The position numbers and the translations under genes were made by a program. This document shows positions 20,938 through 33,141 of a stretch of DNA of 64,000 bases, one piece after another. The notes under the pieces were generated by a model. The model made no database searches. It worked only from the letters and a program-made list of their open reading frames with translations, and was not told the DNA's origin. Numbering within the stretch: position 1 is the first letter of the stretch; the number at the start of each line of letters is the position of its first letter. Location of the stretch: positions 766 to 64,765 of the forward strand of contig DASWHW010000056.1 in NCBI GenBank assembly GCA_036397975.1, written 5' to 3'. Origin of the DNA: Bacteroidota bacterium. Lineage in GTDB: Bacteria > Bacteroidota > Ignavibacteria > UBA10030 > UBA6906.

Positions 20938-21888
20938 GTGTCAACAGAAACGGGAGCCGGAGGACTAAAAATTGTATTCATGGGAACTCCGGAATTTGCG
21001 GTTCCGAGTCTTGAGATTCTCCTGAACAACAACTACGTGGTCGCCGCAGTTGTCACTGCCCCGGAGAAACCTCGTGGTCGCGGCCAGAAACCTTCTCCCA
21101 CCCCCATCGGTGTAATTGCCCGAAAGAACAACCTCACCCTACTTGCTCCTCAGTCTCTTCGTGAGAAAAAGCTTATAGAAACATTGAGCGCGTACCGACC
21201 AGATCTTATCGTCGTAGTCGCGTTTCGCATTCTCCCACCTGAAGTGTTTACGATACCCCGATTGGGTTCGTTCAACCTCCATGCATCGCTACTTCCGAAA
21301 TACCGGGGTGCAGCTCCCATCAACTACGCTATCATGAACGGTGAAAAAGAAACAGGTGTGACGACGTTTCTTCTACAGGAGAAGGTCGATACCGGAAATA
21401 TCTTGCTCCAGGCTCGTGTTCCAATCACAGAACAGGACAATGCAGGCACGATGCACGACAAGCTTGCGGAGGTAGGGGCAGAAATCGTTCTTCATACAGT
21501 CCAACTAATCGAACAAGGGAAGGCAAAACCACATTTGCAGGATGACAACATTGCAACTCCCGCTCCGAAGATATTCAAAGAAGACTGTCGGATTCAATGG
21601 AACCAGCCCGCACGCAGGGTGAGAGATTTTATTCGGGGTCTAGCTCCTTATCCTGGGGCGTTTACGAGACACAGGGGGAAGGTGTTGAAGATTTACAAGA
21701 CTGCTCTAGTCGATGACGCATCAGGAAGAAAACCCGGTACACTTATCGCTTCAGCAAACTCGCTTAACATTACCACTTCGGATTCGGCTCTTGCCATTCT
21801 TGAGCTTCAAGTGGAGGGAAGAAAGACATTGGAAGTAGAGGAATTCCTTCGGGGATACAGGATTGAATCGGGCGAGACATTCGAATAG
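20938..21888 (+). CDS. fmt: Methionyl-tRNA formyltransferase
   Basis: IVFMGTPEFA, NLHASLLPKYRGAAPI; GTG start chosen just after def. Confidence 0.96.
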   Translation: MSTETGAGGLKIVFMGTPEFAVPSLEILLNNNYVVAAVVTAPEKPRGRGQKPSPTPIGVIARKNNLTLLAPQSLREKKLIETLSAYRPDLIVVVAFRILPPEVFTIPRLGSFNLHASLLPKYRGAAPINYAIMNGEKETGVTTFLLQEKVDTGNILLQARVPITEQDNAGTMHDKLAEVGAEIVLHTVQLIEQGKAKPHLQDDNIATPAPKIFKEDCRIQWNQPARRVRDFIRGLAPYPGAFTRHRGKVLKIYKTALVDDASGRKPGTLIASANSLNITTSDSALAILELQVEGRKTLEVEEFLRGYRIESGETFE

Positions 21889-21928
21889 TTCCAGAATGAG
21901 CCCTACGAGATTTCTCAACCACTCCCGG

Positions 21929-22639
21929 ATGAACAGAATCGCTACATTGACGGCTAGTTCCGTCATATTAGTCCTATTGAGCGTCGGTTGTGGATCAACA
22001 CGCGAGCCTCTGGTTGTCACTGAGGCAAAGATCAATGCCCTGAGGGCTTTCGATGCACTGCTCCCGCTTGAACCTGACAGCATTGTTGAACTGTATAGAC
22101 TGAGTACTCCGGCGACATTTCATACGAGGTACCGTCATGAACTCGAGATGGCGGGTCGCTTTATTGACTCAATGAACGCTCTCCTTCCCGACTATGCCAG
22201 GATCGATACACTCGCGATTGACCACGAGTTCGAGAGTTTCGGGGAGGCAGGATGTACCGGCCGGACTATCTACCTTTCCAGCAGTTACTTTCTGATTTAC
22301 AACGATTCTGCTGTAATTTGTTCCATTCTTACGCATGAAACCGGGCATGTTCTGTTTCGCTATCTCCCGACAGCAACGCAAATCGCTCTGAACAAGATAT
22401 GGAAGAAACTGAGGGACGCTTCGTTGCTCTATCTCTTTCGGGATGGCGAGTATTCTGGTAATGCGAAGTTCGGTGGGCATCCGTATGAGAGTCCCGCTGA
22501 GCTTTTTGCTTCGGCTTTCAATCTTTTCCGAAACCAGAGGATAGAGGTTGCCTCCCGGCTTCGATATGTCGATCCGATTCATCTTCCTGATATCGAACGC
22601 CTTCGAGAAATCGTCGAGATTGCCGTTAAGGGTTCTTAA
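21929..22639 (+). CDS. Lipoprotein with a HExxH zinc-metallopeptidase motif
   Basis: Lipobox-like LLSVGC; ILTHETGHVLF; downstream ESPAELFASAF. Confidence 0.7.
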   Translation: MNRIATLTASSVILVLLSVGCGSTREPLVVTEAKINALRAFDALLPLEPDSIVELYRLSTPATFHTRYRHELEMAGRFIDSMNALLPDYARIDTLAIDHEFESFGEAGCTGRTIYLSSSYFLIYNDSAVICSILTHETGHVLFRYLPTATQIALNKIWKKLRDASLLYLFRDGEYSGNAKFGGHPYESPAELFASAFNLFRNQRIEVASRLRYVDPIHLPDIERLREIVEIAVKGS

Positions 22640-22682: not shown

Positions 22683-22738
22683 TTTACAATTTCATAATAT
22701 TTCCTTCACACTCCCTTAACCTTCGGACACTATCTTTG
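22683..22738 (+). promoter_or_regulatory. Pho-box-like direct-repeat array plus TAnnTTTG element upstream of the TonB receptor
   Basis: TTTACA(22683) ATAATA(22694) TTCACA(22705) TTAACC(22716) at exact 11-bp period; TATCTTTG at 22731. Confidence 0.65.
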
Positions 22739-22815: not shown

Positions 22816-25551
22816 ATGAAAAACATTGCCAAAGTCGTCGGAATTGTCCTCGTGGCGATTTACTCTGCATACGGAGGCACACCAGGGTCAATTACAGGAA
22901 TAATTTATGATCAAAAGTCGGGTGATCAACTTATCGGCGTAAACGTCCTGGTCGAAGGAACCTCATTTGGGGGAACGACAGACCTCAATGGCAGATATTT
23001 GATTTCAAATCTTGGGGCTGGCGAATATACTTTACGAGTTTCCTACGTGGGCTATGCGACGAAAACTATCACCGGCGTGAAGGTCACGGCTGACGAGACC
23101 TTTAAACTGAATATTGAGATTTCCGAAGAGATGATTCAGGGTGAGGAGGTTGTCGTCACCGTCGAGCGAGTGCTTGATAGTGAAGCCGGTCTTCTTGCCG
23201 ATCGGAAGAACGCTGCAACGGTGCGCGATGGGATTAGTGCTGAGATCATTCGCCTTTCTCCAGCTTCAACCTCGGGCGATGCGGTGAAGCGTGTCACCGG
23301 TGTGGTAATCGTCGACGATAAATATGTTCAGGTGCGGGGAGCAACCGATAGGTACAATAGCACCTCGCTGAATGGGGTCTCCATGACCAGCACGGACACG
23401 GATGTCGACAAGAAGAGCTTTTCCTTCGATCTCGTTCCGTCTTCACTTATTGAAAACACTTTCGTTATTAAGAGCGCCACTCCTGATCTTCCGGGCGACT
23501 TCAGTGGAGGGTTGGTTCAGATAAACACGCTCGATATACCTCAGGATGAATTCCTCAATCTCGGGTTTTCTCCCTCCTATAACTCTCTGTCGAGCACCAA
23601 AGGTATAAGACTTCCGCAATCTGGCGGTACCGACTGGCTTGGTTTCGATAACGGGAACAGGTCATTCCCTTCTGGAGATCTTCCTCTTGCCCTGGCGGCC
23701 GAAAGACTTCCAAACAATTATGCTTCAAACAACAGGCGCGCGCCCATTGACGGATCGTATCAACTCTCGTACGGGAACCGCTTCTTGCTTGGGGAAAACC
23801 AACTCGGATTGATCGCCGCTCTCTCATACAAGGGTGCTTTCAAGAACGCAAGATTCGATGAGAGTCCGACCTTTGTCCAGGGAGGGATGCCGCAATATGT
23901 TTTTGCCGGCAGCAAAAGCTCCTTCGATGTGTTGTGGGGAGGGATAATTGATTTGCATTACCAATTCGATCGGCTACACAAAATAGGATTCAACAACAGC
24001 TACAATCAATCCGCGACCAATTCACTCGTGGAATCGCAGGGAACGAATATTGCAGGCAGCGCGGCCCAACGCAGGTCGATTGAGTGGGATCAGCGATCTC
24101 TCTATCTATCGCAGCTGAACGGCGACCATGTCCTCGGTGGATTAGGGAACATGAATATCCAGTGGAAGGCGTTCGTTTCTTCCTCAAAGGCTGACCAGCC
24201 GGACAGAAAACAGGTTGAATACACGCAGACCTCACAAGGTCTGTTTCGTCTCGCCGAGAACTACCGGACGTGGTCGAACCTCAGTGAAAAATCGAGAGGA
24301 TTCCGGCTTGATGGAAGCTACTCGCTCGGTGACGCGAAGCTAAAAATCGGTGGAGCATCAGAATTTCGCGAGAGAACGTTTGGAATTCAGGCGTATTCTA
24401 CACTATTGCCGACCGTACAGACCAGGCCGGGAGTTTCGAATCCAAATTATGCCGCGCTTGTGGTTCTTCCGATGGACAGCTTGTTCAGCCCTGAAAATTA
24501 CGGACAAAATAAGCTCAGCCTGGTGTCATCATCATTCTACAATGGGCAATATAATGGAACACATCGAATGAACGCGTACTTCGCGATGGTCGATGTTCCG
24601 TTCACGGTTTTGAACAATGACTTCAGGGTTGCCGGAGGCGCACGTCTCGAGAATTCAGAGCACAACGTTCGGTCGACGGACGCTGCAACGAGCAGCAACG
24701 CGTTTGCGAATCTTCATACAAACGATATTCTCCCATCGCTGAACTTTACTTGGTTGGCTCTTCCATCGACCAATCTTCGGTTATCGGCGTATCAGTCTGT
24801 GAATCGGCCTGAGTTCCGAGAACTTGCTCCTGTAGCATATCTCGATTTTAACCGGGACAGAAACGTTTCCGGTAATGCAGCGTTGCAACGGGCATACATC
24901 CATAATTATGATGCACGCGTTGAAGTATTCCCGGGAGTCGGAGAAGTTGTCGCGGCAAGTTACTTCTACAAGACGATCAGTAATGCAATTGAAGAGGCGC
25001 TCCGCCCCAACCCGGATCGCTATGTCCAGACCTGGTTTAATTCAGCGAATGGAAAAAACTCAGGGTTTGAATTAGAACTGCGAAAGTCTCTGGCTTTCGT
25101 TACACCGGAACTATCACGCCTCATCGTTGGAGTGAACTATACACGGGTCAATTCGGAAGTGGAATATACAGATGCACGAACCGATCCTCAGGGCAACGCA
25201 ATTATTGACACAAGAAATCGCCCGATGCAAGGACAAGCGCCCTGGACAGTCAACGGCTCGCTACAGTTCACCGAACCATTTATAGGAGCGACAATCCAAT
25301 TACTTTATAACACCTCCGGGCGCCGGTTGGCGTCCGTTGGTGATGATCGCGATCAGGACGTTTACGAGGAACCTCGGGATGTAATAGATCTTGCAATTTC
25401 CAGTCGGCTCTTCGACTTATTGAATGTCAAGTTTACCATTCGCGACCTGCAGGGAAAAGATCTTATCTACACCAGTGGAGGCGAAAAGGTCTTCTTTTCT
25501 CGTCAAGAACGGGGAACATCGTATGGTCTTGGTGTTTCGCTTAGTCTCTAA
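22816..25551 (+). CDS. TonB-dependent receptor with N-terminal carboxypeptidase-regulatory-like domain
   Basis: VSYVGY, plug AVKRVTGV...VRGATDRYN, NRPEFRELAP, C-terminal barrel strand YGLGVSLSL. Confidence 0.93.
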   Translation: MKNIAKVVGIVLVAIYSAYGGTPGSITGIIYDQKSGDQLIGVNVLVEGTSFGGTTDLNGRYLISNLGAGEYTLRVSYVGYATKTITGVKVTADETFKLNIEISEEMIQGEEVVVTVERVLDSEAGLLADRKNAATVRDGISAEIIRLSPASTSGDAVKRVTGVVIVDDKYVQVRGATDRYNSTSLNGVSMTSTDTDVDKKSFSFDLVPSSLIENTFVIKSATPDLPGDFSGGLVQINTLDIPQDEFLNLGFSPSYNSLSSTKGIRLPQSGGTDWLGFDNGNRSFPSGDLPLALAAERLPNNYASNNRRAPIDGSYQLSYGNRFLLGENQLGLIAALSYKGAFKNARFDESPTFVQGGMPQYVFAGSKSSFDVLWGGIIDLHYQFDRLHKIGFNNSYNQSATNSLVESQGTNIAGSAAQRRSIEWDQRSLYLSQLNGDHVLGGLGNMNIQWKAFVSSSKADQPDRKQVEYTQTSQGLFRLAENYRTWSNLSEKSRGFRLDGSYSLGDAKLKIGGASEFRERTFGIQAYSTLLPTVQTRPGVSNPNYAALVVLPMDSLFSPENYGQNKLSLVSSSFYNGQYNGTHRMNAYFAMVDVPFTVLNNDFRVAGGARLENSEHNVRSTDAATSSNAFANLHTNDILPSLNFTWLALPSTNLRLSAYQSVNRPEFRELAPVAYLDFNRDRNVSGNAALQRAYIHNYDARVEVFPGVGEVVAASYFYKTISNAIEEALRPNPDRYVQTWFNSANGKNSGFELELRKSLAFVTPELSRLIVGVNYTRVNSEVEYTDARTDPQGNAIIDTRNRPMQGQAPWTVNGSLQFTEPFIGATIQLLYNTSGRRLASVGDDRDQDVYEEPRDVIDLAISSRLFDLLNVKFTIRDLQGKDLIYTSGGEKVFFSRQERGTSYGLGVSLSL

Positions 25552-25593
25552 AGAGCTTTCATTCATCCACTATTCATAAGGAGTCTACCTTTC

Positions 25594-27276
25594 ATGAACA
25601 AACTGCACATCGGTTTTATCCTCTTCACAGTGTTGACGTTTTCAAATGTCGTCTTTGCTCAGCCAACCCAAATTCTCGGAACTCCAACCCCAGGAAGGAA
25701 TACAATTTCGCATCAGGCCTTTAATCGCACACTCAGCGCTGATACGGTGTACCGTCTTATTAACACATATGAGATTGATTCTACCTATTCTCTTACCATC
25801 CCTGCCGGAACCGTCATCCTTGGTGATACGGGTTCAGCATTTATTGTTCGTCGCGGTGCTCAGGTATTTGCGACGGGAACAGCCATTGACCCAATAGTGT
25901 TCACGAGTGTCCAAAATCCGGGATTCCGGGCGCCGGGAGATTGGGGCGGCGTAGTATTGCTCGGTCGCGCTCCGCTAAATAAAGTTGAACCAGCCGTTGA
26001 AGGGAACAACATTGATGCGTCTCTGAGCTATGGTGGATCTGTGGCCAACGACAATAGCGGTATACTCCGTTATGTTCGGATTGAGTTTGGTGGATTTCGT
26101 TATCAATTAAATAACGAAATTAACGGCCTTACTTGCGGAGGAGTTGGATCCGGAACGGAGATTGACCATGTCCAGGTTTCTTACTCTTTTGATGATTCCT
26201 TTGAATTCTTTGGAGGAACGGTGAGCCCAACACACCTGGTTGCATTCGGAGGGACGGACGATGATTTCGACACTGATTTTGGTTTCAAAGGAAAGCTACA
26301 GTTTCTCTTTGGTCTCAAGGATCCAAATTATTGGGATCCCACGGGAGAGAGCAATGGTTTCGAGTCGGACAATGATGGTTCTTCAACATCCACGGATATT
26401 CCATGGACTGAAGCAATAGTTTCCAATGTAACACTCATCGGTCCGGAGCGCACGAACGCTAATGTTCCACCCCCAATCGGCAATTCGTTCCAATATAGTG
26501 CGGTAATGCGCCGATCGACGCGACAGAAACTTTATAACTCAGTTATCATGGGCTATCCGTGGGGATTAAGCCTTCGGGATGTAAATACGATTGCAGCGGC
26601 AAATTCCGACACACTCCAATGGCGCAATGTTAGTATCCAAGCGACAACAACTCCACCAGGTGGAACCGCTGGGTTTGCACACGACATCAGTCGATGGTCA
26701 GGAGTGCAAACATGGTTTGATAACCCTGCATACAACAACATCGGGTCGGCGATCAGACTGCCTAACATCATTGGTTTGACAGACATGAGTGATTTGAATA
26801 ATCCTAATCCGGTGCCCGCAACGGGATCTGAACTCATCGGCTCTGCAAGTTTTGCAAACTCATATCTCTCGGGTTTCACAACCGTAACCTATCGGGGGGC
26901 ATTTGATCCTTCTCTGCCGATGTCCCAGCAATGGACAGCGGGTTGGACGAACTTTGATCCCCAGAATACGGGGTACACAACTGATGTGAAAGAGGTTGGT
27001 GGAATACTTCCCTTGATGTTCGTTTTGGAGCAGAACTACCCAAACCCATTCAATCCTTTAACAGTGATCAATTTTAGCGTGCCGAGCAGCGGTAATGCTG
27101 TATTAAAAGTATATGACATCCTTGGGCGCGAAATCACCACCCTCGTCGAAGGAGATCTCACGGCTGGTAACTATCAGGCTGAGTTCAACGCATCGAAACT
27201 GTCGTCGGGTACTTACTTCTATTCTCTGTCGACCAACGGTTCGACTCAGATAAAAAAGATGATGCTGATGAAGTAG
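25594..27276 (+). CDS. T9SS-secreted (CTD-bearing) protein, probable beta-helix, phosphate-locus associated
   Basis: Signal peptide; PGDWGGVVLLGRAP, NSGILRYVRIEFGG, DDSFEFFGG, DDDFDTD; C-terminal LEQNYPNPFNP...YDILGREI...SGTYFY...KKMMLMK. Confidence 0.9.
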   Translation: MNKLHIGFILFTVLTFSNVVFAQPTQILGTPTPGRNTISHQAFNRTLSADTVYRLINTYEIDSTYSLTIPAGTVILGDTGSAFIVRRGAQVFATGTAIDPIVFTSVQNPGFRAPGDWGGVVLLGRAPLNKVEPAVEGNNIDASLSYGGSVANDNSGILRYVRIEFGGFRYQLNNEINGLTCGGVGSGTEIDHVQVSYSFDDSFEFFGGTVSPTHLVAFGGTDDDFDTDFGFKGKLQFLFGLKDPNYWDPTGESNGFESDNDGSSTSTDIPWTEAIVSNVTLIGPERTNANVPPPIGNSFQYSAVMRRSTRQKLYNSVIMGYPWGLSLRDVNTIAAANSDTLQWRNVSIQATTTPPGGTAGFAHDISRWSGVQTWFDNPAYNNIGSAIRLPNIIGLTDMSDLNNPNPVPATGSELIGSASFANSYLSGFTTVTYRGAFDPSLPMSQQWTAGWTNFDPQNTGYTTDVKEVGGILPLMFVLEQNYPNPFNPLTVINFSVPSSGNAVLKVYDILGREITTLVEGDLTAGNYQAEFNASKLSSGTYFYSLSTNGSTQIKKMMLMK

Positions 27277-27307
27277 TAATCCTTCCTCCCTCTTTAAAGG
27301 AAGGATA

Positions 27308-27354
27308 GAGGCCCCCAGCAGCGCTGACCCCTGCATGAGGGGCCTCGCTTTTTT
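27308..27354 (+). terminator. Intrinsic terminator
   Basis: GAGGCCCC...GGGGCCTC stem then GCTTTTTT. Confidence 0.7.
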
Positions 27355-27377
27355 AGAAGAGCGACGATAGCAGTGAT

Positions 27378-27433
27378 TTTACAATTTGTTAACATTGGGG
27401 TAACACTCAGGAAACGTTAATTGTGCATATTTA
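27378..27433 (+). promoter_or_regulatory. Pho-box-like direct-repeat array upstream of porin-pstSCAB-phoU
   Basis: TTTACA(27378) TTAACA(27389) GTAACA(27400) GAAACG(27411) at exact 11-bp period; CATATTTA at 27426. Confidence 0.75.
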
Positions 27434-27439
27434 GAGCGC

Positions 27440-28756
27440 TTGGGTCAGAAACAAGCCTCGTTTTTTTTCCTCATTGCAGACACCTCTTGGGTCAGAAAGG
27501 ATCTCTTCACGAGACAAGCAATATTTTTCATCATTGGAGTGCTCCAATTGTTCGCGATTGGACAACCATCTGTCGCCGGTGATGATCAAATAAAGACGAA
27601 TCAGGAATCGAGCCTTAAGTTCAGTGGATATTTTCAGCCGCAGTTTCGTGTTCGCAGAGATGATAGCCTTGCCGCAACTGAAGCCGGTCAGTTCTCTGGC
27701 GGTGTATTCGCAAGGAATGCGAACAACGAATTTGACATACGTCGTGGACGAGTGAAAGCGACGTACACAAAAGGACTTACACAAGCGGTCATCCAACTTG
27801 ATGCAACTCCCGGGAGTGTCATACCAGTTGACATTTATGGTGTAATCGTGGAACCATGGCTTCGATCGTTCGGACTTCAAGTTGGGTTGTTCAACCGTCC
27901 ATTTGGATATGAAGTTGAGCTTTCTTCAGGAAAGCGAGAATCTCCGGAGCGTACTCGAGCCACACAGACGCTATTTCCGGGAGAGCGCGATATCGGTGCT
28001 AAACTTTTCTATAAAGCCCCTGACAACGGGCTGCTTTCCCTTGAGATCGAACTTGGTGTCATGAATGGGACGGGACGATCGACTGAAGATTATGATAGTT
28101 TCAAAGACATTATTACTCAGGCATCTATTTCTATACCGCTGGACGATGAGAAAACGAATTTGGGAATTGGGGCATCTGGGTATTTCGGGAAAGTGGCAAG
28201 CGGAACACAAACGGTGTTTAATCCTTCGAGCGATGGATTTCTTGAGATGACCTCAGCGGATAATCTCGGCAAGGGTCTTAAGAGAACATATTATGGAGGC
28301 AATGTGCAGTTTTCGACTGAACTTCCATCGTTGGGAACGCTCTCTATTCGCGGAGAAGTAGTCGCTGGTAAGCAGCCCGGAACCAGTAGCTCCACGGTTA
28401 GCCCATCGCGTCAGCCTTCGGGTGATCTCTATCAGAGAAATCTCCTGGGTTGGTATGTGAACCTTGTTCAAAATCTCGGATCACAAAACCAAATCGTTGT
28501 CAAGTACGATGTCTATGATCCTAACACGGACGCAGGAGCTGCCGATTTTATCGCTTCCAGCAACCTCACTCCGGCAGACGTCAAATTCAGCACACTCGGT
28601 TTCGGCTTCATCCATCATTGGGATAGCCAGGTGAAGTTCGTGTTCTACTATGAAGTTATTCAAAACGAAGAACTTAGTTCAGCGTCAAGTATCACCAGGT
28701 ACACAAGCAATCTCAAAGACGATATCTTTACCCTGCGTATGCAGGTCGCTTTCTAA
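27440..28756 (+). CDS. Phosphate-selective porin (OprO/OprP-like)
   Basis: FSGYFQPQF, FDIRRGRVK, GLFNRPFGYE, RDIGA, C-terminal LRMQVAF; directly upstream of pstS; TTG start uncertain. Confidence 0.8.
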   Translation: MGQKQASFFFLIADTSWVRKDLFTRQAIFFIIGVLQLFAIGQPSVAGDDQIKTNQESSLKFSGYFQPQFRVRRDDSLAATEAGQFSGGVFARNANNEFDIRRGRVKATYTKGLTQAVIQLDATPGSVIPVDIYGVIVEPWLRSFGLQVGLFNRPFGYEVELSSGKRESPERTRATQTLFPGERDIGAKLFYKAPDNGLLSLEIELGVMNGTGRSTEDYDSFKDIITQASISIPLDDEKTNLGIGASGYFGKVASGTQTVFNPSSDGFLEMTSADNLGKGLKRTYYGGNVQFSTELPSLGTLSIRGEVVAGKQPGTSSSTVSPSRQPSGDLYQRNLLGWYVNLVQNLGSQNQIVVKYDVYDPNTDAGAADFIASSNLTPADVKFSTLGFGFIHHWDSQVKFVFYYEVIQNEELSSASSITRYTSNLKDDIFTLRMQVAF

Positions 28757-28783: not shown

Positions 28784-29617
28784 ATGAAACATCTCTTTAT
28801 TTTGCCTCTCGTGGCTGCGCTTATGAACGGTCCTATGAACGCACAGGAAAGAATTACGATCAAAGGTTCCGACACGATGGTCATTCTCGCACAGCGATGG
28901 GCAGAAAAATTCATGGCCGAGAACCCGGACGTTGTTTTGCAGGTAACAGGCGGCGGATCGGGGACCGGTATCGCAGCCCTGATTAACGGAACGACTGAGA
29001 TTTGTAATTCATCCAGAAAAATTAAGGATAGCGAGCGCGCGAAGCTGACTGAGAAATACGGCTCCCGTGGAATTGAAATCAAATGTGCCCTCGATGGTAT
29101 TGCCGTCTATGTTCATATATCAAATCCGGTAAAGGAACTCACCCTCGATCAGGTGAAGAAGATGTTCACTGGAAAAATCACCAACTGGAAAGAAGTGGGT
29201 GGGCCTGATGCAAAGATCATCTTGTACAGTAGGGAGAATAACTCAGGGACATACGTGTATTTCAAAGAAGAAGTCCTGAGTGATGAAGACTTCGCGTCAT
29301 CCGCATTAAGCCTTCCGGGAACTGGTGCAGTAGTGAATGCTGTGGCGAAGGATAAGTTTGGCATTGGCTTCGGTGGGGCGGCTTATGCGGAGGGTGTGCG
29401 TGACGTCGCAGTGAAAAAAGACACGAAATCACCCGCCCTAACGCCGGACTTGAAATCAATTAAGTCGGGCGACTATCCCATTAGTCGGTTTCTTTACATG
29501 TATGTTATCAAGAAGCCGGCAGGCGCGATCAAAAAATACATTGACTGGACGTTAAGCAAAGAAGGTCAGAAGATTGTTGCAGAGGTTGGGTATTTTCCAA
29601 TCAGATCGATTGAATGA
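28784..29617 (+). CDS. pstS: Phosphate ABC transporter substrate-binding protein
   Basis: IKGSDT, GGGSGTG, SRENNSGT, YPISRFLY. Confidence 0.93.
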   Translation: MKHLFILPLVAALMNGPMNAQERITIKGSDTMVILAQRWAEKFMAENPDVVLQVTGGGSGTGIAALINGTTEICNSSRKIKDSERAKLTEKYGSRGIEIKCALDGIAVYVHISNPVKELTLDQVKKMFTGKITNWKEVGGPDAKIILYSRENNSGTYVYFKEEVLSDEDFASSALSLPGTGAVVNAVAKDKFGIGFGGAAYAEGVRDVAVKKDTKSPALTPDLKSIKSGDYPISRFLYMYVIKKPAGAIKKYIDWTLSKEGQKIVAEVGYFPIRSIE

Positions 29618-30786
29618 CCTCCCGAAAGGAAAAAGAGACAGCTTCGCACCATGGCGTTGGGGTTTCATCAAGAGAGAAGCACTCGCCAATCACTAAACGT
29701 TCAAACGGGAAGTCAACTGGCGGAACTAACAGGAATGACTCGGTAGGTTTGCAGAAAAAATTCAGGCCCGGCGACTTTGTAGCAGAAAAAATTATCAAGG
29801 CAACAGCATTCGTTTCCCTGGCGTTTATCGCACTGATTACCATTTTCGTATTTCGTGAAGCATTGCCGGTGTTCTTCATGCCGGAACAACCGGCAGGAGT
29901 GTTGGATGTACGCGTGCAGGAAGAGGAGACATATGGAGAAGAGTTTCTTGGAGAAGCGAGCCGAGACCTCGCCGCGGAAGAAACAAAGAAAGCAAAGGAA
30001 TCACCGGAAGAATCGCACGATCTCAGCCTTTCAAATTTACTGTCACTCACCTGGCAGCCTGTTTCATCCAGCCCAAAATACGGGATCATTCCCCTGGTTA
30101 TTGGTTCCTTGAAGGTGACGTTGGTCGCGATGGCAATTGCCATTCCCATTGCAATCCTTGCAGCTCTTTTCATCTCTTCCTTTGCGCCTCGCTGGGCGAA
30201 AGAAATTCTCAAGCCGTCAATTGAGATTCTGGCGGGCTTTCCTTCAGTGGTCATCGGGTTCTTTGCACTTGTCCAGCTCGCATCAATTCTTCAGAGCACG
30301 TTAGGATATCCATACCGGTTAAATGCACTTGTGGGCGGCGCCGCGATGGCACTGGCAGTAATCCCGATTATTTTCACCGTAACGGAAGATGCGCTTGCTG
30401 CTATTCCAAAGCACATGACCGAGTCAAGTCTTGCGCTTGGCGCAACGCAATGGCAAACGGCGCTCTTTGTGACGCTGCCCGCCGCAACACCCGGAGTGTT
30501 CGCAGCAATTCTCCTCGGGTTCGGTCGGGCGTTCGGAGAAACGATGATTGTCCTGATGGCAACGGGAAACGCGCCGATCGTTTCAGCCATCATCGCCGAT
30601 CCGGTGAGAACGTTATCGGCTACGATAGGAGCCGAAATGGCTGAAGTGGTAGTTGGCGATCCGCATTATCACGTCCTCTTTCTCTTGGGAGCCATCTTAT
30701 TTCTGTTTACCTTCTTGCTGAATGCTATTGCTGAAGGTTATGTGCGTGCCCGACTCCTCAAAAAATTTACCGGAGAAGGTGCATGA
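29614..30786 (+). CDS. pstC: Phosphate ABC transporter permease
   Basis: EILAGFPSVVIG, GRAFGETMIV, VRTLSATIGAEM. Confidence 0.93.
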   Translation: MTSRKEKETASHHGVGVSSREKHSPITKRSNGKSTGGTNRNDSVGLQKKFRPGDFVAEKIIKATAFVSLAFIALITIFVFREALPVFFMPEQPAGVLDVRVQEEETYGEEFLGEASRDLAAEETKKAKESPEESHDLSLSNLLSLTWQPVSSSPKYGIIPLVIGSLKVTLVAMAIAIPIAILAALFISSFAPRWAKEILKPSIEILAGFPSVVIGFFALVQLASILQSTLGYPYRLNALVGGAAMALAVIPIIFTVTEDALAAIPKHMTESSLALGATQWQTALFVTLPAATPGVFAAILLGFGRAFGETMIVLMATGNAPIVSAIIADPVRTLSATIGAEMAEVVVGDPHYHVLFLLGAILFLFTFLLNAIAEGYVRARLLKKFTGEGA

Positions 30787-31691
30787 AACCCCTGCGGTTT
30801 ACTCTGGGGAAAATGGTCGTTCCCATTTCTGCGTTCGCTTCCTTTGGCGTTATCCTCATAGTCATTATTGTTATGGGGACGATTCTTGCTGGAGGGTGGA
30901 GCACGTTGTCGTGGGAATTTCTCACCGCAACTCCCTCGGAGGGAATGACTAAGGGGGGAATTTTTCCCTCGATTGTCGGCACTGTGTTGTTGGTCTTGAC
31001 CATGTCGATCGCCGGTGTACCCATCGGGACGATCACTGCATTGTATCTCAGTGAATATTCCACGAAAGGATCGTATCTCTCACGTGGGATTCGTTTTGCC
31101 GTCAACACTCTGGCGGGCGTTCCCGCAATTGTGTTTGGTTTGTTCGGACTTGGTTTTTTCGTTCAATTCGTCGGTGGGGGACTGGATTCGATCTTTGCGG
31201 ATGGCATTCAAGTGAAATGGTCGCAGCCGAATATTCTCTGGGCCAGTCTCACGATGGCGATTCTTACTTTGCCAGTTGTCATCGTCTCTGTCGAAGAAGC
31301 CATCAAAGCCGTTCCGCAAGAGTTGCGTGCTGCGAGTCTGGCGCTTGGGGCAACGCAATGGCAGACCATATGGAAAGTTGTTCTCCCAAATTCTCTCACA
31401 GGAATTCTCACAGGAGCGATTCTCGCGGTCAGCCGGGGGGCGGGGGAGGTCGCTCCGATTCTTTTCACCGGTGCGGCATACTTTCTTCCGGAGCTACCCA
31501 GTGGACTCTCCGATCAGTTTATGGAACTGGGATACCATATTTATATCATGTCGACACAATCGACAAATGTCGAGGCGACCGAGGGCATTCAGTACGCAAC
31601 GACACTGGTGTTGCTGCTTCTGACGTTCGTTTTGAACTTCAGCGCCATCTTCGTTCGGTCCCGTCTCCGAAGTCGTGTAACGAGAGCTTAA
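30783..31691 (+). CDS. pstA: Phosphate ABC transporter permease
   Basis: [32 protein letters not shown]. Confidence 0.93.
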
Positions 31692-32467
31692 TGATGACAC
31701 TTACCGTAAAAATGACTACAAAGGTAGCGACGCATGGTCTTAATCTTTTCTACGGTGAAAAACAGGCCCTTCATTCCATTTCGCTTGACATACCCGCGCA
31801 CAGGGTCACCGCGTTCATTGGACCTTCTGGATGCGGCAAATCGACCTTTTTACGATCATTGAATAGGATGAATGATTTGATCCAAAACGTTCGTACGGAG
31901 GGACAGGTATTGCTGGACGGAATGAATATCTACGCGGACGATATCGATGTTGTCGAGCTCAGGAAACGGGTTGGCATGATTTTTCAAAAATCCAACCCAT
32001 TTCCGAAATCCATTTATGAAAATGTCGCATATGGACCGAAGATCAATGGCATGCAGAACCGTGCCGCTCTCGACGAAATCGTTGAGACCAGTCTGCGTCG
32101 TGCAGCACTTTGGGATGAAGTGAAAGATGAGTTGAAAAAGAGCGCCCTTTCTCTCTCTGGAGGCCAGCAGCAAAGGCTCTGTATTGCACGCGCTCTCGCC
32201 GTTAATCCCGATGTCCTCTTAATGGATGAGCCAGCCAGTGCTTTGGATCCGATTGCGACGGGAAAAATCGAAGAGCTTATCTTTGAACTGAAGGACAAGT
32301 ACACTATTGTAATTGTCACACACAATATGCAGCAAGCTGCCCGAGTTAGCGATTTAACTGCGTTTTTCTATTTGGGGGAATTGATCGAGTTTGGGAAAAC
32401 GAAATCGTTGTTTACGACGCCTGAGAAAAAGCAAACAGAAGACTATATCACAGGGAGATTCGGTTAA
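31691..32467 (+). CDS. pstB: Phosphate ABC transporter ATPase
   Basis: [40 protein letters not shown]; start at 31691 or 31712. Confidence 0.96.
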
Positions 32468-32469
32468 CT

Positions 32470-33141
32470 ATGCAACGCCATTTTGAACAAGAAATAGAAA
32501 AGCTCAAGACCCTCCTCATCAAGATGTCTAGCCTTGCGGAGGATGCAATTGCAAAGTCGATCCGGGCAATGCTTGAAAAGCAACCAAGCATCGCGCAACA
32601 AGTCGTTGACCAGGATACTGCGATCAATTTAATGGAAGTAGAAATTGACCAGGCGGTTGTCGACCTCCTTGCCCTGCAGCAACCAGTTGCAACGGATCTC
32701 AGGTTTATTCTCGCCGCGTCGAAGATCAATAATGATCTTGAGCGCATTGGTGACCATGCCGTCAACATCGCTGAATCGGCGAGAAAGTTTTCCGAAATAT
32801 CAACGATTGAACCGGTGGTGGATATTCCTCAAATGTCTCAGATTACCAAAGCAATGCTTCGCGATTCAATCGACGGATTCATCCACTCGAACACTGCTCT
32901 GTGTCTTGCAGTATTGAAGAACGATGACCTGATTGACGAACTCAACAAGAAGGTTGTGAACGAACTTGTCGAAGCGATTCGCAAAAATCCCAAGATGGTC
33001 GAAGAGGCATTGGAGATCATTCGCGTGAGTCGCAATCTTGAGCGCGTTGCCGATCTGGCAACGAACATTGCGGAAGAAGTCATTTTCATTCGCGAAGCAC
33101 GGGTTGTCAAACATCATCTCGAAGACCCGAAGAAAAAGTAA
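32470..33141 (+). CDS. phoU: Phosphate signalling complex protein PhoU
   Basis: QQPVATDLR, DLERIGDHAVNIAE, NLERVADLATNIAE. Confidence 0.96.
   Translation: MQRHFEQEIEKLKTLLIKMSSLAEDAIAKSIRAMLEKQPSIAQQVVDQDTAINLMEVEIDQAVVDLLALQQPVATDLRFILAASKINNDLERIGDHAVNIAESARKFSEISTIEPVVDIPQMSQITKAMLRDSIDGFIHSNTALCLAVLKNDDLIDELNKKVVNELVEAIRKNPKMVEEALEIIRVSRNLERVADLATNIAEEVIFIREARVVKHHLEDPKKK

Follow-up and report, generated by a model that had tools for sequence, protein, structure and literature searches.

A phosphate-starvation gene cluster of a Bacteroidota bacterium encodes an ElpS-family beta-helix protein with a T9SS sorting domain next to a TonB-dependent receptor

The closest described relatives of the gene pair studied here come from Caulobacter, Flavobacterium, and Bacteroides. 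In Caulobacter crescentus, ElpS is a surface-exposed protein that is induced by phosphate starvation and released into the medium in a T2SS-dependent manner, and its gene precedes that of a TonB-dependent receptor (CC0171, reported to be constitutively expressed) beside the gsp genes. Purified ElpS has no phosphatase activity and an elpS deletion leaves the activity unchanged, but overexpression of ElpS raises alkaline phosphatase activity in the supernatant (Le Blastier et al. 2010, PMC2996285). In Flavobacterium johnsoniae, the receptor Fjoh_0545 and the surface lipoprotein Fjoh_0546 (FII) belong to the PUSIV phoBR cluster, adjoin oprP-phoR-phoB, and are induced 8–10 log2-fold by phosphate depletion only, while the Flavobacterium homologues are tightly repressed under iron limitation; together with its relatives FI (Fjoh_3856/3857) and FIII, FII ranks with the most abundant proteins in the exoproteome of Flavobacterium starved of phosphate (PMC8115612). 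FI and FII were modelled on polygalacturonase by Lidbury et al. 2020 (PMC8115612), and these authors as well as Price & Arkin describe Fjoh_0546 as related to ElpS with weak similarity to pectate lyases and polygalacturonases. In Bacteroides thetaiotaomicron, BT4056 has been proposed to be the lid of the receptor BT4055, with a proximity that is kept in 621 genera including Proteobacteria and with few confident contacts between the two proteins in AlphaFold-Multimer; that study places BT4056 in the pectin-lyase superfamily by InterPro and cites the F. johnsoniae and Caulobacter data instead of a phosphate link of its own (Price & Arkin 2023, bioRxiv 10.1101/2023.03.17.533168). The underlying concept of a TonB-dependent transporter capped by a surface ligand-binding partner is shared with SusC/SusD-like systems and with the PusCD complexes, which are induced by phosphate starvation (PMC8115612; bioRxiv 10.64898/2026.09.03.749221). 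As late as September 2026, the function of these loci was still called hard to predict (bioRxiv 10.64898/2026.09.03.749221).

In a 64-kb stretch of DNA from a Bacteroidota bacterium (the window), two transcription units on the same strand between 22.7 and 33.1 kb form a real phosphate-starvation gene cluster (Table 1). One comprises the genes of a TonB-dependent receptor and a secreted protein and ends in a terminator, whereas the other starts with an OprO/P-like porin followed by pstSCAB-phoU. This division follows from the hairpin and T-run downstream of the receptor–partner operon, the inner stem of which (27328–27342) is also listed by a terminator scan. A sequence-only reading had described the receptor and a secreted protein with a T9SS C-terminal domain directly upstream of porin-pstSCAB-phoU and had seen no SusD-like lipoprotein; the genes indeed lie in this arrangement, and the one directly after the receptor encodes a beta-helix protein with no SusD-like gene at the locus. 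Compared to Caulobacter, the gene order is reversed in that the partner gene follows the receptor, and no T2SS gene is present at the locus, where the porin-pstSCAB-phoU operon comes next instead. All five pst and phoU products exceed their NCBIfam cut-offs. PstC carries an N-terminal extension of approximately 140 amino acids, and inspection of start codons placed the ATG of pstB across the stop codon of pstA, so that a longer pstB reading frame from 31217 was discarded as an artefact of the ORF listing.

Table 1. Positions of genes, domains, and regulatory elements in the window.
Feature	Position	Strand	Basis or details
Pho-box-like array 1, TTTACA/ATAATA/TTCACA/TTAACC	22683..22726	+	four 11-bp-phased hexamers; repeat family D1
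TonB-dependent receptor, non-SusC type, 911 aa	22816..25551	+	Pfam domains
ElpS-family beta-helix surface partner, 560 aa	25594..27276	+	PF28492, AF2, BLASTP
Conserved acidic ladder in beta-helix	26116..26373	+	E175, D200, D201, E204, D222, D223, D226, E257, D259
T9SS type-A C-terminal sorting domain, residues 482-557	27037..27264	+	PF18962, TIGR04183
Intrinsic-terminator-like hairpin GAGGCCCC...GGGGCCTC and T-run	27308..27354	+	sequence reading
Pho-box-like array 2, ATAGCA/TTTACA/TTAACA/GTAACA/GAAACG	27367..27421	+	five phased units
Divergent OprO/OprP-type porin	27440..28756	+	homologue Pfam matches, AF2 model
pstS, phosphate-binding protein	28784..29617	+	TIGR02136 255 bits vs cut-off 207
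pstC permease	29614..30786	+	TIGR02138 224 bits, residues 141-378
pstA permease	30783..31691	+	TIGR00974 254 bits
pstB ATPase	31691..32467	+	TIGR00972 416 bits, residues 171-416 of longer ORF
phoU	32470..33141	+	TIGR02135 195 bits

Both units are preceded by Pho-box-like arrays that have TTTACAATTT in common (repeat family D1), one ca. 90 nt upstream of the receptor start (ATG 22816, alternatively ATG 22798) and the other upstream of the porin-pst operon. A scan of either strand of the 64 kb with criteria set a priori (four TT[ATC]ACA hexamers, i.e., the Bacillus subtilis PhoP box, phased at 11 bp; up to 4 mismatches) returned exactly two sites (22683 and 27367/27378, both on the forward strand), while chance predicts a mean of 0–0.02 sites (100 shuffles). 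The repeat array that had been noticed upstream of both operons is therefore borne out, and at each of four related loci an array of this kind, located upstream of the receptor or of the TonB-motor operon, ranked first or second by score.

The porin at the head of the pst operon is a divergent member of its kind. It reaches no Pfam threshold itself, yet 20 of 30 homologues at 42–48% identity match PF07396 (Porin_O_P), and its AF2 model (pLDDT 74) reaches its highest query TM-score, 0.58, with Pseudomonas aeruginosa OprO (4rjw); a comparison of the porin family profile with solved structures by sequence found none. The start codon is uncertain and could be TTG 27440 or, following the database gene call, a GTG 33 codons later. 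P. aeruginosa OprP and OprO are selective for phosphate and polyphosphate, and the window porin, which shows many invariant Arg and Lys residues and heads a pst operon under a Pho-type array, may be anion-selective as well.

The receptor contains CarbopepD_reg_2, Plug, and TonB_dep_Rec_b-barrel domains and has TIGR01782 (TonB-Xanth-Caul) as its top NCBIfam match, with 194 bits and thus under the cut-off. The SusC model fails on this protein, covering the N-terminal domain only (57 bits versus a cut-off of 368), so that the locus differs from SusC/SusD systems in both its receptor and the lack of a SusD/TPR-type partner, for which a beta-helix protein predicted to be delivered by the T9SS stands in; BT4055/BT4056 likewise combine a non-SusC receptor with a beta-helix surface partner. 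The secreted protein (P0002) consists of a Sec signal peptide (MNKLHIGFILFTVLTFSNVVFA/QP) without a lipobox cysteine, a beta-helix core, a linker, and the T9SS C-terminal domain, and both PF28492 (Beta_helix_4) and PF18962 are assigned to an identical protein in the database. Its AF2 model (pLDDT 86) is a right-handed beta-helix for which Foldseek returns weak matches (TM <= 0.22) to pectate lyase 3zsc, PL6 lyase 5gkd, RbmB, and AlgG, and a Pfam search gave no match to lyase or hydrolase families. The acidic and glycine-containing motifs that had caught attention earlier are all found in this core (DDSFEFFGG, residues 200–208; DDDFDTD, 222–228; NGFESDND, 254–261), spaced by 22–32 residues, and in the model they fall inside consecutive strands or immediately precede them; by this spacing and these strand positions, the carboxylates appear to stack as a ladder on successive rungs. 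Across 50 sequences that span Proteobacteria, Bacteroidota, and further phyla, ten ladder carboxylates (those of Table 1 and E136 upstream of them) are at least 92% conserved, eight of them invariant, and W117, Q236, R306, and N315 are similarly conserved (92–100%); no conserved basic cluster accompanies the ten carboxylates in this survey.

A BLASTP search linked the secreted protein to a 512-aa lipoprotein of Caulobacter sp. BE264 (36% identity over 275 residues, E 5e-37) of ca. 50 kDa with an LAGC lipobox at residues 17–20, the gene of which is followed by those of a TonB-dependent receptor, GspD, and GspE. This lipoprotein is the ElpS orthologue of that species, and its size, lipobox, and gene order match the published ElpS/CC0170-CC0171-T2SS arrangement (PMC2996285). 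The secreted protein is a true homologue of Caulobacter ElpS, to which the sequence-only reading had noted a resemblance. The beta-helix core is homologous with all acidic-ladder residues kept, the adjacent receptor is homologous to the CC0171-like one of Caulobacter (E 1e-35), and the link to phosphate starvation is experimental for ElpS while it is made by the Pho-box arrays for the window locus. Kinship to Fjoh_0546 is indicated by the published work and by Bacteroidota homologues at 39–43% identity, and PF28492 unites the window protein with BT4056 and Fjoh_0546/FII in a family of at least 3,848 clusters (50% identity) at E <= 1e-30.

At the loci surveyed, the receptor is the most constant companion, adjoining the partner gene on the same strand at 69 of 80 related loci and in all four close relatives. 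The receptors next to the partner in the 80 loci, including the CC0171-like one of Caulobacter, are homologous to the window receptor, and the similarity rankings of receptor and partner parallel each other from locus to locus. The order of homologue, receptor, and gspN/D/E/F/G recurs in Sphingomonas and Indioceanicola, whereas Fjoh_0545/0546 show the receptor-then-partner order of the FCB-group loci that we surveyed and, like the window pair, lie beside an OprP-type porin, with Pho regulators nearby. Apart from the receptor, the neighbours that recur most often are PhoB/PhoR-like genes, as exemplified by phoBR-pstS-...-homologue-receptor-TonB motor in Alteromonas and receptor-partner-pstS-phoU in a Melioribacter MAG. 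Core Pho genes lie within ca. 7 kb at 20 of the 80 loci, a quarter of them, and pst adjoins the pair in none of the four closest relatives. Together with the arrays at both operons and the published induction of homologues, these Pho genes support the earlier proposal that the pair belongs to a phosphate-scavenging system.

On balance, we lean towards reading the receptor and the beta-helix protein as a pair for outer-membrane uptake under Pho control, of the same kind as ElpS/CC0171 (BT4056/BT4055 and Fjoh_0546/0545 in the other organisms). Under phosphate limitation, a PhoB/PhoP-type regulator would bind both arrays and switch on both operons. The beta-helix protein would cross the inner membrane via Sec and the outer one through the T9SS, lose its C-terminal domain, and remain attached by its C-terminus to the cell surface (part of it may be shed), where it could dock on the receptor as a lid. 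The ladder of around ten carboxylates may hold Ca2+ or Mg2+ and through these cations capture an anionic phosphorus compound. Given that no hydrolase is consistently co-encoded (none is recurrent across the 80 loci), the most economical guess would be a ubiquitous compound, for instance orthophosphate, pyrophosphate, polyphosphate, or a small phosphoester. TonB-dependent transport would bring it into the periplasm for phosphate uptake by PstS-PstCAB, and the OprO/P-like porin would offer a parallel route by diffusion. The lid idea itself finds weak support in the literature on BT4055–BT4056 contacts, ElpS release, the elpS deletion, and the reported constitutive expression of CC0171. It also speaks against the reading as a whole that so acidic a site would repel phosphate if cations did not bridge it, and that Pho genes are near only a quarter of the related loci.

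T9SS type-A cargo can be, and often is, released instead of anchored. It is possible, though rather doubtful, that the beta-helix protein is a shed enzyme or enzyme activator that makes extracellular phosphate available and plays no physical part at the receptor, which would only import the products. It might be an enzyme of the lyase, hydrolase, or phosphodiesterase type that attacks phosphorus-containing polymers (teichoic acids, phosphoglycans, DNA, or polyphosphate, for example), or it might activate a phosphatase, as proposed for ElpS. Strict conservation of around ten carboxylates and one Arg looks more like an active site than like a loose lid, and the fold is that of pectate lyases, PL6 lyases, AlgG, and phage tailspike depolymerases; ElpS release and the effect of its overexpression (PMC2996285) fit this idea just like the abundance of FI/FII/FIII in the exoproteome (PMC8115612). 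However, the phenotypes of purified ElpS and of the elpS deletion (PMC2996285), the weak Foldseek and missing Pfam matches to enzymes, and the tight same-strand adjacency to the receptor across phyla, as for lid-type partners, argue against it, and neither polymer-degrading nor product-processing enzymes recur in the neighbourhood.

The ten carboxylates without a basic cluster could also suggest that the ladder binds Ca2+, Fe3+, or another cation and that the pair imports metal and not phosphorus, which we regard as unlikely. TonB-dependent receptors classically carry metal chelates, and such a receptor might supply cofactors for starvation-induced phosphatases like PhoX (Ca/Fe) or PhoD, in keeping with the stimulation of alkaline phosphatase by ElpS that is not a phosphatase itself (PMC2996285); alternatively, the pair might strip cations from phosphate that is bound to minerals or complexed with metals, and the freed phosphate could enter via the adjoining porin and pst. 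But the Flavobacterium homologues respond to iron limitation with repression and are induced by phosphate depletion only (PMC8115612), phosphatase, siderophore, or metal-regulator genes are linked in none of 92 loci, and a Fur- or Zur-type context is absent. Very improbable is that the pair serves carbohydrate acquisition, with a pectate-lyase-like enzyme, a glycan receptor, and a coincidental proximity of pst. The Foldseek matches, the InterPro assignment of BT4056 (bioRxiv 10.1101/2023.03.17.533168), and the polygalacturonase-based models (PMC8115612) point that way, yet the likeness is at fold level only, the recurrent neighbours are Pho genes and not CAZymes, and the locus lacks SusD, glycoside hydrolases, and sugar transporters. 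Moreover, the only two phased Pho-type arrays of the window precede exactly these operons, and the induction of homologues is specific to phosphate depletion (PMC2996285, PMC8115612).

The sole unusual point of the cluster is that the partner of the proposed uptake pair carries a T9SS tag for the surface and not a lipid anchor. This tag had been proposed before and is confirmed, as the C-terminal domain scores above both cut-offs (PF18962, 42.7 versus 27 bits; TIGR04183, 45.2 versus 23 bits) and has Foldseek matches to those of the T9SS substrates 8glk_D and 8qb1_A. ElpS, by contrast, is a lipoprotein with an LAGC lipobox and a long Pro/Thr-rich N-terminal tether, the Flavobacterium partners are surface lipoproteins rather than T9SS cargo, and BT4056, the lid role of which is a prediction, is likewise a lipoprotein and bears a surface-export signal of the Bacteroidota type. 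Across the family, lipobox and T9SS C-terminal domain are alternatives, and their swap is clade-bound with approximately 5 switches on the tree compared to 38 with shuffled labels.

The receptor-partner pair in the window, a TonB-dependent receptor gene followed by the gene for the 560-aa secreted protein P0002 (the partner), is a member of a known family with an experimentally established response to phosphate, and its variant trait is predicted delivery by the T9SS in place of lipidation. In Caulobacter crescentus, phosphate starvation induces ElpS (CC0170), a ~50-kDa lipoprotein encoded beside the receptor CC0171; ElpS is exposed at the cell surface, is then released in a T2SS-dependent manner, and is itself no phosphatase (PMC2996285). 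The related lipoproteins FI, FII and FIII of Flavobacterium johnsoniae rank among the most strongly induced and most abundant exoproteins upon phosphate depletion only, and FII (Fjoh_0546) comes after the transporter Fjoh_0545 in a cluster that includes oprP, phoR and phoB (PMC8115612). In the account of Price & Arkin, BT4056 is a proposed lid of the receptor BT4055 and a homologue of ElpS and Fjoh_0546, and lid and receptor genes occur together in 621 genera (bioRxiv 10.1101/2023.03.17.533168). According to a preprint of September 2026 from the Flavobacterium field, these loci (Pus3 and Pus4) encode distinct lipoproteins at the surface, and predicting what they do is still difficult (bioRxiv 10.64898/2026.09.03.749221). 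Our literature search returned no report joining ElpS with the T9SS, no description of a T9SS-tagged member and no newer functional study of the ElpS family.

The beta-helix core of the partner matched no model in the Pfam and NCBIfam sets that we scanned, and its assignment to PF28492 (Beta_helix_4) comes from precomputed tables, which hold this match for P0004 (a database protein 100% identical to the partner) and for all close relatives; the Pfam set run with hmmscan was one without that model. As to family size, 7,998 of 8,000 scored candidates were significant, more than 594 relatives were found in species-representative genomes, and searching 1.84 billion representatives with a profile yielded at least 3,848 clusters at E <= 1e-30 (at looser thresholds, the C-terminal sorting domain swells the count). 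Homologues with 32-43% identity were also found by tblastn against plasmids and chromids, including those of Pseudoalteromonas, Alteromonas, Marinobacter, Indioceanicola, Sphingomonas, Hymenobacter and Parabacteroides. We take a 512-aa relative from Caulobacter sp. BE264 to be the ElpS orthologue because its N-terminus (...ALALAGCGS) has the LAGC lipobox at residues 17-20 as reported for ElpS, its size is ~50 kDa, and genes for a receptor, GspD and GspE come next. P0002 is 36% identical to this protein over 275 residues (BLASTP, E 5e-37), and this match together with the hallmarks of the orthologue makes the likeness to ElpS, which the sequence-only reading had put forward, one of homology. 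The order homologue-receptor-gspN-D-E-F-G in Indioceanicola and Sphingomonas is the one published for elpS-cc0171-T2SS (PMC2996285). Many members of the family are tandem beta-helix multimers of 2-6 copies and up to 2403 aa (P0245-P0393; P0014, P0007); long homologues mostly consist of such copies of one beta-helix, and the only fused domains found in those of up to 1356 aa were Big_2, pentapeptide and C-terminal sorting domains. In the ~950-aa forms of Melioribacter/Ignavibacteria and in proteobacterial lipoproteins of 900-1360 aa, the conserved domain lies at either end.

Two transcription units on the + strand make up a phosphorus island at 22.68-33.14 kb of the window (see table), which confirms as a whole what the sequence-only reading had observed: a receptor and a secreted protein directly upstream of porin-pstSCAB-phoU, sharing an upstream repeat array and lacking a SusD-like gene. 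No SusD-like ORF was found beside the receptor, and its match to TIGR04056 (57 bits against a cut-off of 368) is confined to the N-terminal domain, so that a SusC/SusD-like complex was rejected. The terminator behind the partner gene was called by reading the sequence; sigma-70 promoter and terminator scans gave counts no higher than in shuffles. The 258-aa ORF on the 5' side of the island had no Pfam or NCBIfam match. The DNA runs that contain the partner gene are soil and sediment metagenomes, and the gene was found in no RNA run.

Features of the phosphorus island and its flanks in the window
Feature	Coordinates	Strand	Remarks
Upstream housekeeping genes		+	sigA, NlpC/P60 gene, def, fmt, then 258-aa ORF
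258-aa ORF	21863-22639		Overlaps the end of fmt; directly 5' of the first Pho-box array
Repeat family D1, first copy	22683-22713		Pairs with the second copy
TonB-dependent receptor gene	22816-25551	+	CarbopepD_reg, Plug and barrel domains; not SusC-type
Partner gene (P0002, 560 aa)	25594-27276	+	Starts 42 nt past the receptor end
GC-rich hairpin + T-run	27308-27354	+	Closes unit 1
Repeat family D1, second copy	27378-27408		Pairs with the first copy
Porin-like gene (P0003)	27440-28756	+	First gene of unit 2
pstS, pstC, pstA, pstB, phoU		+	Unit 2, after the porin-like gene; Pst/PhoU genes above NCBIfam cut-offs
N-terminal extension of PstC	29614-30036		~140 residues, Lys/Glu/Ser-rich
CopD-like gene, parA, parB			3' of the phosphorus island

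Both copies of the repeat pair reported by the repeat finder are in 11-bp register and form hexamer arrays near TT[ATC]ACA. This hexamer is the PhoP box of Bacillus subtilis, and the Pho boxes of Escherichia coli share the 11-bp phase. An a-priori scan of both strands of the 64 kb for four TT[ATC]ACA hexamers phased by 11 bp, allowing up to 4 mismatches overall, returned exactly two sites (22683 and 27367/27378), both on the + strand and one before each operon, compared to a mean of 0-0.02 sites in 100 shuffles. Because the two arrays are unique in the window, we rejected a chance adjacency of the pair to pst. From their sequence, the arrays would be bound by a regulator of the PhoB/PhoP type; neither phoB nor phoR was found within the 64-kb window. 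A strict Pho-box scan of 91 loci gave few sites outside Bacteroidota, and since the box differs between phyla we ranked the best-scoring arrays in four related loci of ~20 kb each (L088-L091). The top array lies 130-175 nt 5' of the receptor gene in L088 and L089; in L090, the second-best array lies 121 nt 5' of the receptor and the best one precedes a DUF3450-exbB-exbD-tonB operon, and the top arrays of L091 are found within the divergent intergenic region between such an operon and the receptor.

For the gene neighbourhood we surveyed 80 genome loci that had been ranked by similarity to a Sphingomonas member and are therefore rich in Proteobacteria and Bacteroidota. A homologous receptor adjoins the partner on the same strand in 69 of them, the remainder being mostly short contigs, and lies directly 5' of the partner in all four closest relatives; the gene order is partner-receptor in Proteobacteria and receptor-partner in the FCB group and other lineages. 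Similarity rankings of receptor and partner run parallel across loci, as expected of a co-inherited pair. Core Pho genes (pstSCAB, phoU, phoB, phoR) occur within ~7 kb in 20/80 loci, where we would roughly estimate ~1-2% for a random gene. T2SS genes were found in 15/80 loci and a DUF3450-ExbB-ExbD-TonB motor in 7/80. Alteromonas loci are arranged as phoB-phoR-pstS-oxygenase-partner-receptor-TonB motor and a Melioribacter MAG as receptor-partner-pstS-phoU; among the four closest relatives, pst is next to the pair in none, the TonB motor adjoins in two, and ppk lies ~8 kb off in two. In an unsupervised clustering of the neighbours in 92 loci, PhoB/R-like genes ranked second in frequency, behind the receptor, and the only other recurrent companions were T2SS, TonB motor, pstS and 2OG-oxygenase genes; no phosphatase, nuclease or phytase was recurrent.

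Several details of these neighbourhoods stand on their own. A 2OG-Fe(II) oxygenase gene sits between pstS and the partner gene in six loci (L007:5057-5848 and five other Alteromonadales). A six-gene DUF3450-ExbB-ExbB-ExbD-TonB-TPR motor resembling Vibrio TonB2 lies beside the pair from Alteromonadales to the T9SS clade (L090 and L091; also L001, L007, L043, L046, L048 and L063) and in L090 and L091 has its own phased Pho-box-like array (L090:10729-10772, L091:5914-5957); no such motor was found in the 64-kb window. An endonuclease (DNA/RNA non-specific), a porin or a lamin-tail-domain (LTD) protein is encoded near the pair in some loci (L003:5244-6578 and 1-730, on a Hymenobacter plasmid; L088/L089:11355-13583). 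These links, like that to polyphosphate kinase, are suggestive but do not recur.

The anchor of the window partner follows the T9SS tag of the sequence-only reading rather than a lipid: its Sec signal peptide has no Cys and hence no lipobox, and residues 482-557 form a T9SS type-A sorting domain above both cut-offs (PF18962, 42.7 bits vs 27; TIGR04183, 45.2 bits vs 23), with Foldseek matching the Ig-like C-terminal sandwich of the model to C-terminal domains of T9SS substrates. Among 87 plasmid and genome loci (mostly Proteobacteria and Bacteroidota), 73 have a detectable lipobox, and a C-terminal sorting domain is absent from all of these 73; the window and L084 and L088-L091 have the sorting domain and no lipobox. 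On a FastTree phylogeny of 172 beta-helix cores, the lipobox/C-terminal-domain label changes 5 times, compared to 38 times on average (minimum 30) with shuffled labels, and the proteins closest to the window partner all carry the C-terminal domain. With this domain in place of a lipobox, the tether shifts to the C-terminus from the N-terminus, where lipobox members are lipidated, in many cases through a long Pro/Thr linker; judging by other cargo of type A, the partner is presumably attached by the T9SS to a surface glycolipid. Four proteins (P0055, P0100, P0267 and P0342) combine an apparent lipobox-like Cys in the signal peptide with a T9SS C-terminal domain and may be either artefacts of the regex match or genuine intermediates with two anchors.

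The AF2 model of P0002 (pLDDT 86) is a right-handed beta-helix followed by a disordered linker and the Ig-like C-terminal domain. The acidic residues E136, D153, E175, D200, D201, E204, D222, D223, D226, E257 and D259 of the partner are 92-100% conserved among 50 sequences from multiple phyla, as are W117, Q236, N278, R306, N315 and structural glycines. The motifs NE-x-NG (173-178), DD-x-F-E (200-204), DD-x-F-D (222-226) and F-E-x-D (256-259) are spaced by 22-32 residues, which is the rung spacing of the beta-helix, and in the model fall inside consecutive strands or immediately ahead of them; from this spacing and these positions, the acidic motifs should form a stacked carboxylate ladder. 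Ca2+-dependent beta-helix proteins are exemplified by pectate lyases, and by this analogy we infer that the partner may bind cations and capture an anionic ligand through cation bridges. We lean towards a lid, Pho-induced and tethered through the T9SS, that would use bound cations to capture an anionic phosphorus compound and hand it to the receptor. Metal import or metal stripping by the pair, which the ladder would also suit, we consider improbable.

Function as a shed enzyme or activator is rather unlikely; the T2SS-dependent release of ElpS would be in keeping with it. Foldseek hits of the P0002 model were fold-level only (tailspikes, pectate lyase, PL6 lyase and AlgG; TM <= 0.22, ~11% identity) and gave no functional lead. 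With these weak hits, no Pfam or NCBIfam match and no match of the P0002 sequence in the PDB, membership of the beta-helix enzymes (pectate or polysaccharide lyases, glycoside hydrolase 28) was rejected. The absence of such matches speaks against an enzyme and against a pair for carbohydrate acquisition, a reading that the lyase-like fold might evoke and that we regard as most improbable. Taken together, the homology, the Pho-type arrays and the T9SS tag support the interpretation of the sequence-only reading, a candidate phosphorus-scavenging system with a link to ElpS, and we retain the tethered lid as the preferred account of the partner.

A wider proposal, which we consider unlikely and offer tentatively, would see in the ElpS-type pair an ancient machine, shared across phyla, that draws on TonB to bring inorganic phosphorus through the outer membrane. 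Several Ca2+/Mg2+ ions would then sit on the ladder of about ten carboxylates and capture nanomolar ortho-, pyro- or polyphosphate, or else Ca/Fe-phosphate in mineral or colloidal form, and the partner would pass the compound to the receptor. Such hand-over would account for the company that the pair keeps: phoBR/pst, a TonB2-like motor in several lineages, and in no case a hydrolase. Anchors would be exchangeable between an N-terminal lipid, release through the T2SS and a T9SS tether at the C-terminus, which would show that only the location of the partner matters and not the orientation of its tether.

The ElpS/BT4056 pair is among the most widespread and most strongly induced phosphate-starvation responses in diderm bacteria. 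To this, the locus adds a regulatory tie, with one phased box type before both the pair and the pst operon, and a natural experiment in which the lipid anchor has given way to a presumed T9SS tether on the other terminus. The swap is an independent argument that the partner works outside the cell, and it is relevant to a question posed by Price & Arkin, namely how bacteria other than Bacteroidota display these proteins at their surface. Among the conserved residues, the carboxylate ladder, W117, R306 and Q236 are shortlisted as targets for mutation. As the substrate cannot be read from the locus, what it does is to sharpen an existing problem and not to open a new one.

The porin-like protein P0003, a candidate phosphate-selective porin of the OprO/OprP type, had no Pfam match itself, and Porin_O_P (PF07396) was matched by 20 of 30 homologues with 42-48% identity (best E 1e-6) in a sample enriched for flagged members. 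Its AF2 model (pLDDT 74) is a porin barrel with a best query TM-score of 0.58 to the OprO structure 4rjw; PDB searches with the single sequence and with a profile gave no meaningful match. A homologue of P0003 lies 5' of the receptor-partner pair in a Sphingobacteriales MAG (L076). The porin gene has no ATG start and would begin with TTG at 27440 or with a GTG 33 codons further on, as in the database gene call, which would leave a very short signal peptide. Near the start of this ORF, the 13-mer CTTGGGTCAGAAA occurs twice (27439-27451 and 27486-27498), 47 nt apart and in two frames. Further along the operon, the N-terminal extension of PstC is made up of a charged tail on the cytoplasmic side, a single transmembrane segment and a long loop of acidic character, and lies ahead of the residues that match the PstC model (141-378).
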